Under the pieces are notes generated by a model. It was given only the letters and a program-made list of their open reading frames with translations, was not told where the DNA came from and ran no database searches. Source: Escherichia coli (lineage in GTDB: Bacteria; Pseudomonadota; Gammaproteobacteria; Enterobacterales; Enterobacteriaceae). Taken from it: a stretch of 64,000 nucleotides of DNA. A program made the position numbers and the translations under genes. Where the stretch lies: the NCBI RefSeq assembly GCF_003334385.1, contig NZ_QOWN01000002.1. One strand, written 5' to 3'. This document shows positions 57,746 through 57,991 of the stretch, piece after piece; within the stretch, counting starts at the first letter, position 1; each line of letters begins with the position of its first letter.

Positions 57746-57801
57746 TGTAATATCCTTTCTCTTTCTTAGACAGTACCTTACGGCACTGGTGTTAATACCC
57801 G

Positions 57802-57975
57802 ATCTTCTGCGCATCCTCGCGACTAATGACAACCCTAACCCAGCTCTATGTGGGTAAAGCCTCTCATTAGCCGCGCGAACCTCTGCAACGGAAGATCATT
57901 CATAGCAACAATACATTAGTTTCCAGTGAATTGCTGCCGTCAGCTTGAAAAAAGGGGCCACTCAGGCCCCCTTTT
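57802..57975 (+). ncRNA. sraG: Candidate small RNA SraG (PsrO) in the rpsO-pnp intergenic region, opposite to pnp
   Basis: Placed only from recalled K-12 architecture (247-bp gap between pnp start and rpsO stop, reproduced here). Not independently verifiable from sequence; ends approximate. Confidence 0.35.
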
Positions 57976-57978
57976 CTG
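57947..57978 (-). terminator. Rho-independent terminator of rpsO
   Basis: Hairpin ggggcc-actca-ggcccc flanked by A/T runs, about 15 nt after the rpsO stop. Coordinates approximate. Confidence 0.7.
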
Positions 57979-57991
57979 AAACTCGCAAGAA

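Follow-up and report, generated by a model that had tools for sequence, protein, structure and literature searches.

Antisense RNAs that cover the 5' or intergenic region of their target, and whose duplex with that target is cleaved by RNase III, are represented by GadY/gadXW and RyeA/SdsR, and SraG of Escherichia coli K-12 resembles them in both respects. The Listeria RNA RliD, which is antisense to pnpA, is found in the same genomic neighbourhood as SraG, without high sequence homology to it. SraG is unlike these antisense RNAs in that it is, in addition, the mirror image of an intramolecular RNase III hairpin already present in its target, and in that its main action is that of a 5' tail which blocks 30S binding. 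The target, pnp, encodes PNPase, whose autoregulation has been described in a series of studies (Portier, Régnier, Hajnsdorf; Jarrige 2001; Carzaniga 2009, 2015; Park 2015; summarised in PMC5029454). P1 transcripts either stop at the terminator T1 or continue into pnp, and the promoter P2 is located downstream of T1 (PMC5029454). In a K-12 sequence identical to the one analysed here, RNase III cleaves the leader hairpin on each of its arms, at distances of 39 and 77 nt from the P2 start, and cleavage is followed by the PNPase-dependent loss of a small 5' RNA, attack by RNase E and binding of CsrA at the Shine-Dalgarno sequence (SD) (PMC5029454). The region is a textbook case of layered post-transcriptional control of an RNase, in which RNase III, PNPase, RNase E, CsrA and an antisense RNA all take part.

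SraG, for which the alias PsrO is confirmed (PMC6735904), is a 216-nt primary transcript, shown in the K-12 strains MG1655 and N3433, whose start was mapped by circular RT-PCR to a position 42 nt upstream of the 5' end published in 2001 (Fontaine et al, 2016; PMC5029454). It ends at the rpsO terminator, read in reverse, and about half of the RNA consists of processed forms of ~190 nt (PMC5029454). A mutation of the -10 element, close to the SD, led to the loss of the 216-nt RNA and to a 1.3-fold rise in pnp mRNA and PNPase, and the 30S toeprint on pnp was abolished by full-length SraG, but not by SraG-S, which is 42 nt shorter (PMC5029454). The SraG–pnp duplex presents new RNase III sites, SraG is itself cut by RNase III at mirror sites, and Hfq binds it with a sub-nanomolar to nanomolar affinity (PMC5029454). 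SraG is also found among the antisense RNAs of the ProQ interactome (PMC5391140).

Position and identity of the locus

The window considered here is the whole stretch of 64,000 nucleotides of E. coli DNA that was analysed. In it, pnp (55610..57745, minus strand; ORF list and MG1655 annotation) and rpsO (57992..58261, minus strand; S15, 89 aa; ORF list, MG1655 and RefSeq annotation) are separated by a spacer at 57746..57991. According to these gene boundaries the spacer measures 246 bp and not 247 bp, the length given, off by one, in a preliminary description of this DNA. The rpsO stop codon TAA (57994-57992) adjoins the spacer. At its other end, pnp begins with a TTG codon (57743..57745, minus strand), as had been described; this is in agreement with the MG1655 annotation and with a homologous TTG in all 67 of the Enterobacterales junctions listed in the comparison below. 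The SD of pnp, read directly from the sequence as AGGA at 57753..57756 (minus strand), is situated 7 nt upstream of the start codon, and the motif AAGGA at this position is kept across the 67 listed species. The pnp frame is also open upstream, over 57746..57832 on the minus strand, giving a 740-aa ORF from a TTG at 57832 instead of the annotated 711 aa. The added codons cover the 3' arm of the pnp leader hairpin, and a start at 57832 lacks credibility; we kept the annotated start instead, given its SD and a TTG that recurs in 67/67 listed junctions.

The 331 bases from 57700 to 58030 are 100% identical to K-12 MG1655, for which window coordinates correspond to those of NC_000913.3 minus 3,253,423. 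The MG1655 record contains a curated ncRNA gene, sraG (b4449), which corresponds to 57760..57975 on the plus strand of the window. The whole SraG gene, its promoter region, the flanking genes and the terminator of K-12 (RF00082; b4449) are identical here, as are the leader hairpin, the SD and the TTG codon on which the K-12 model of PNPase autoregulation is built, so that the locus shows no difference in this respect. In a 4-kb comparison with MG1655 only two bases differ, at 58172 and 58508, both outside the spacer. It is almost certain, in our view, that this locus is the canonical E. coli rpsO–pnp intergenic control region; it has already been described in full detail, and the reference strain has the identical sequence. 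The window itself is therefore of little significance, as it presents no departure from K-12. The elements named in the preliminary description are confirmed where it placed them or close by, and its interpretation is supported with three small corrections, which concern the promoter position, the RNA length and the spacer length. The contribution of the present work that can be considered novel is the comparison across Enterobacterales, with regard to strand bias and to the conservation of the -10 element; the remainder was already known.

Within the species, the spacer was found in 5,426 of 5,426 complete E. coli genomes, with an identity of at least 99% in 5,176 of them. Three variant alleles were sampled, and the changes in their spacers are restricted to 57845 and 57847 in the apical loop of the leader hairpin, 57960 in the terminator loop and 57784 in the unstructured linker; one of the three has an additional change at 57710, within pnp. 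The hairpin energy is unchanged in all three, at -47.6 kcal/mol. One copy of the spacer is carried by a plasmid record, and a few E. coli genomes contain two copies. As for the two bases that distinguish the window from MG1655, the first is located in codon 30 of rpsO, where it is synonymous (Ala30, GCA to GCG), and the second in truB. No match to the variant at 58172 exists among the 5,426 complete E. coli genomes, the best identity being 120/121 for a 121-base query, and the window consequently does not correspond exactly to any complete reference genome.

The pnp leader

The most prominent structure of the spacer is a long imperfect hairpin of the pnp leader, named R, which extends over 57801..57897 on the minus strand and whose function as the RNase III site is described in PMC5029454. 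A long RNase III stem in the minus-strand leader had been anticipated, and the fold bears this out: hairpin R has a predicted energy of -47.6 kcal/mol (z -6.0; none of 200 shuffles folds as well) and comprises ~40 pairs, interrupted by small internal loops and closed by an apical loop at 57843..57850. Its stem exceeds two helical turns and lies between the P2 start and the SD. At the scale of the whole spacer, the minus strand folds at -96.1 kcal/mol, against -69.3 ± 4.2 for dinucleotide shuffles (z -6.4). The segment of the leader between hairpin R and the SD (57757..57800, minus strand) is mostly unstructured, with no significant structure found in it (z -1.0). From 57760 upward, the leader is complementary to the first 42 nt of SraG, which are the part required for repression.

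The region between the terminator and hairpin R (57898..57947, minus strand) would hold P2. We place the P2 start at approximately 57900..57903, on two grounds. The pnp RNA used in vitro, which measures 234 nt from the P2 start to nt 79 of the ORF, leads to an estimate of ~57900, and the RNase III sites at +39 and +77, positioned on the computed fold with the geometry of a 2-nt stagger, lead to an estimate of ~57903. An early guess of 57908, derived from a match to CTGACG-17-ACTAAT, was dropped. Neither a consensus scan nor a relaxed scan detected a consensus promoter for P2. A weak hairpin at 57904..57938 (-11.8 kcal/mol, z -2.8) would occur in the dicistronic transcript only. In addition, at E <= 1 a search against Rfam gave no match on the sense strand of the spacer, which implies that automated annotation detects the leader only through its antisense mirror, 'SraG'. 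With respect to existing annotation, RefSeq has no feature under the spacer in 25 of the 25 non-K-12 genomes listed, and sraG appears only in the curated MG1655 record.

SraG, its promoter and the shared terminator

The preliminary description had mentioned an oppositely oriented sRNA, SraG/PsrO, in this spacer, and its gene is indeed present. The Rfam model RF00082 matches in full length at 57804..57975 on the plus strand with 164.3 bits (gathering score 50, E = 4.2e-31), and the sequence is 100% identical to the curated K-12 locus. The gene lies between rpsO and pnp, in the orientation opposite to both, and its start and terminator fall within the identical segment 57700..58030, where both were mapped in K-12. 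On this identical sequence the 216-nt primary transcript occupies 57760..57975 (plus strand; MG1655 annotation, RF00082, PMC5029454). The Rfam model follows an older form of 174 nt, in contrast to the curated gene and the 2016 paper, which give 216 nt from 57760. The size of ~170 nt and the plus-strand promoter near 57780..57810 that were first proposed are both wrong because they were taken from this older annotation: the RNA measures 216 nt, or ~190 nt once processed, according to the MG1655 annotation and PMC5029454, and a start at 57760 puts the -10 element at ~57748..57753. The 5' end at 57760 is located 4 nt upstream of the SD (57756), which fits the wording 'close to but not overlapping' of PMC5029454. 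The old 5' end (~57802) falls at the base of hairpin R, and it is for this reason that the short form of SraG cannot block the ribosome.

The putative SraG promoter extends over 57722..57753 (plus strand), on the basis of hexamer scans relative to the annotated start. A -10-like hexamer TAATAT is found at 57748..57753, 6 nt before the start at 57760, and is overlapped by TGTAAT at 57746..57751; the best -35-like hexamer, TTTACG, is found at 57722..57727, within the first pnp codons. The promoter would therefore overlap the pnp start codon and abut the SD on the other strand, with these exact hexamers as the probable elements. It is a weak promoter, and no sigma-70-like site was detected on the plus strand by the consensus scan or by the relaxed scan. 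Since both P2 and the SraG promoter are non-consensus, their positions are founded on the literature and on the distance from mapped starts.

Both rpsO and SraG end at the same structure. The rpsO terminator had been placed at ~57947..57978, and folding locates the hairpin, which is T1 for rpsO and T for SraG, at 57948..57976 in both directions, with a G/C core at 57954..57971. On the minus strand it has 12 pairs, an energy of -19.9 kcal/mol (z -3.3) and a U6 tail at 57953..57948; on the plus strand it folds at -15.7 kcal/mol and its G/C core is followed by CUUUU, with the U4 tail at 57972..57975 corresponding to the annotated 3' end of SraG. A G/C-rich hairpin with a U-tract is thus present on each strand. 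This arrangement is similar to that of the bidirectional intrinsic terminators of convergent transcripts, in which a G/C-rich hairpin lies between an A-tract and a T-tract, and here it ends both the rpsO mRNA and SraG. The two sides are nevertheless unequal (U6 and -19.9 kcal/mol for rpsO, U4 and -15.7 kcal/mol for SraG), and read-through clones have been reported for the SraG side (PMC5029454). A terminator scan detected the plus-strand site, at 57954..57975, and missed the rpsO terminator on the minus strand although its fold is clear, probably since the T run is taken up by the A·U pairs that extend the stem. In one E. coli isolate, 30859_5#11 (NZ_OZ040555.1, 629471..630896), an IS4 element is inserted in the loop and 3' arm of this terminator, at a site equivalent to 57958..57968 of the window with ~11 bp matched on both sides. 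It parts rpsO from the pnp leader and would sever SraG from its terminator.

We propose that these elements would act together as follows. Transcription from the rpsO promoter would either stop at T1 or read through into pnp, for which P2, just past T1, would be a second driver. Both arms of the long leader hairpin would be cut by RNase III, after which PNPase would strip the small RNA paired to the new 5' end; the message would then be open to decay by RNase E and to CsrA at the ribosome-binding site, so that PNPase would limit its own synthesis. On the opposite strand, the weak promoter lying over the pnp start codon would yield SraG, as an RNA of 216 nt and processed forms of ~190 nt, whose first 42 nt would base-pair with the leader immediately before the SD. 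Such pairing would bar the 30S subunit from the mRNA and add RNase III sites in the duplex, with the consequence that PNPase would be lowered by roughly 30%. In K-12, on an identical sequence, experiments have established which transcripts are made, where SraG starts, where RNase III cuts, that the toeprint is blocked and what mutation of the promoter does; the present analysis demonstrates the sequence identity, the structures, their conservation and the strand bias. Given the identity to K-12, we infer that SraG would be expressed in the present strain as well.

Conservation across Enterobacterales

The comparison was based on an exact 15-mer of the 3' arm of the hairpin, searched in species-representative genomes, which gave at least 120 loci and at least 68 intact rpsO–pnp junctions with 67 distinct sequences. 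These junctions come from what we take to be the families Enterobacteriaceae, Erwiniaceae, Yersiniaceae, Pectobacteriaceae, Morganellaceae and Budviciaceae. Anchoring on this 15-mer biases the choice of species, and their phylogenetic relatedness means that the counts below cannot be treated as independent. The core of the hairpin is nearly invariant, including its 5' arm, TTCGCGCGGCTAATGAGAG, which played no part in the selection of the loci. A consensus structure established for 66 listed species contains 23 pairs, with 98.8% of cells paired, compared to 32-49% in slid controls; 12 of the 23 pairs show no variation, and one varies in a clearly compensatory way, as GC in 45 sequences and AU in 17. 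The structure of the mRNA strand is thus conserved among relatives at the leader hairpin.

The two strands are far from equivalent. The design of hairpin R favours the pnp-mRNA strand, on which its stability is the greater in 67/67 listed species (mean -47.5 kcal/mol, against -30.2 on the SraG strand). Within the hairpin, G·U pairs number 380 on the mRNA strand and 37 on the SraG strand, and the mirror structure, when forced on the SraG strand, reaches only -24.6 kcal/mol. Composition accounts for part of this bias, as the mRNA strand folds better even when shuffled; after normalisation by dinucleotide shuffles of each strand, z is -6.49 for the mRNA and -4.72 for SraG, the mRNA being lower in 57 of the 67 listed species. 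The signals specific to SraG show less conservation. At the terminator, at least five T follow the core, counted around the G/C core, on the rpsO strand in 67/67 listed species and on the SraG strand in 38/67. The -10 hexamer of E. coli, TAATAT, is found at the homologous position in 19 of the 67 listed species only. It is present in Citrobacter youngae, Photorhabdus and Yersinia, and absent in Klebsiella, Enterobacter, Kluyvera, Erwinia and most Pantoea. The Rfam SraG model nonetheless matches 13 of the 13 species tested, with 67-161 bits, including those without this -10. In RNA-seq of Dickeya, SraG was the sole annotated sRNA that was not detected (PMC6735904).

These results lead us to a tentative but plausible hypothesis, namely that only the sense-strand pnp leader is under selection and that SraG is a lineage-restricted and largely incidental antisense transcript, its conservation in Rfam being the mirror image of the hairpin and of the rpsO terminator. 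The strand difference in stability, the G·U pairs, the composition-corrected z scores, the unequal U-tracts and the discrepancy between the -10 counts and the Rfam matches all point in this direction, as do the failure to detect SraG in Dickeya and the modest 1.3-fold effect of native SraG in E. coli (PMC5029454). Several observations argue against it. SraG has significant structure of its own on the plus strand (z about -4.7); it is also cut by RNase III at mirror sites, bound tightly by Hfq (PMC5029454) and listed in the ProQ interactome (PMC5391140). Effects of an SraG deletion have been reported in Yersinia pseudotuberculosis, and a SraG homologue has been detected in Edwardsiella. Moreover, other plus-strand promoters may be missed by a test with a fixed position, the E. 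coli promoter itself failing the consensus scans, and the choice of related species through an exact hairpin 15-mer means that the counts do not carry independent weight. It is nevertheless quite conceivable that the Rfam 'SraG' family is kept by sense-strand constraints, exerted by the pnp leader hairpin and the rpsO terminator, and that antisense transcription is a lineage-restricted add-on, which may have arisen where the spacer between SD and TTG happens to read as a -10 on the opposite strand. Sense-strand selection is compatible with the mechanism proposed above for E. coli; what it alters is the meaning of 'SraG' elsewhere. If it is true, many of the 'SraG' genes annotated beyond Escherichia and its near relatives do not encode an sRNA. 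The sole non-trivial point of this work is that 'SraG' matches outside E. coli and its relatives may mainly reflect the conservation of the pnp leader. For annotation in general, the lesson is that a covariance-model match that mirrors a conserved sense structure does not prove that an sRNA is made.

Two other interpretations of the antisense RNA and the spacer were considered. SraG could act mainly in trans on unlinked targets, such as the YPK_1206-1205 operon proposed in Yersinia, with the overlap with pnp being secondary. The affinity of Hfq for SraG, the target reported in Yersinia (PMC5029454) and the listing of SraG in the ProQ interactome (PMC5391140) are consistent with such a role, but microarrays, pulse-labelling and Northern blots of ten predicted targets revealed no trans target in E. 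coli, the deletion of hfq left both the level of SraG and its effect on pnp unchanged, and the Yersinia operon has no homologue outside Yersinia (PMC5029454). We consider this role unlikely. It is highly improbable that a small protein is encoded in the spacer, on the SraG transcript or in the leader. Three ORFs of 21-23 codons do exist, at 57848..57919 on the plus strand and at 57835..57903 and 57896..57961 on the minus strand; all three lie within strongly paired hairpin arms, none is preceded by a visible SD, their frames run across the apical loop and the upper part of the stem, where species differ by indels, and none is annotated there in MG1655. They were rejected on these grounds.

The spacer varies in architecture between genera. 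In Erwinia, Pantoea, Tatumella and Rosenbergiella, ~60 extra nt are found between the rpsO stop codon and the terminator, which gives a spacer of 298-318 nt; this longer gap was seen at loci L098, L025, L121 and L040 and in other Erwiniaceae. In Kluyvera, Pseudocitrobacter and Enterobacter sp. BIGb0383 (L071, L083 and L015), ~100 extra nt are instead located between the terminator and the hairpin, for a spacer of 346-353 nt. The hairpin region of Dickeya oryzae (L048) folds at only -26.8 kcal/mol, compared to about -50 in Dickeya undicola, and its spacer is longer by ~50 nt, pointing to an insertion in or beside the 5' arm. Two further RNA elements are found on the minus strand of the window. 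The S15 leader (RF00114; 58205..58319, 117.6 bits), the element of rpsO translational autoregulation, lies upstream of the start of rpsO and overlaps it, and a match to naRNA4 (RF02564) at 59832..59902, with 68 bits, is located upstream of a 139-aa ORF (59354..59773) that corresponds to the gene annotated as rbfA in RefSeq.
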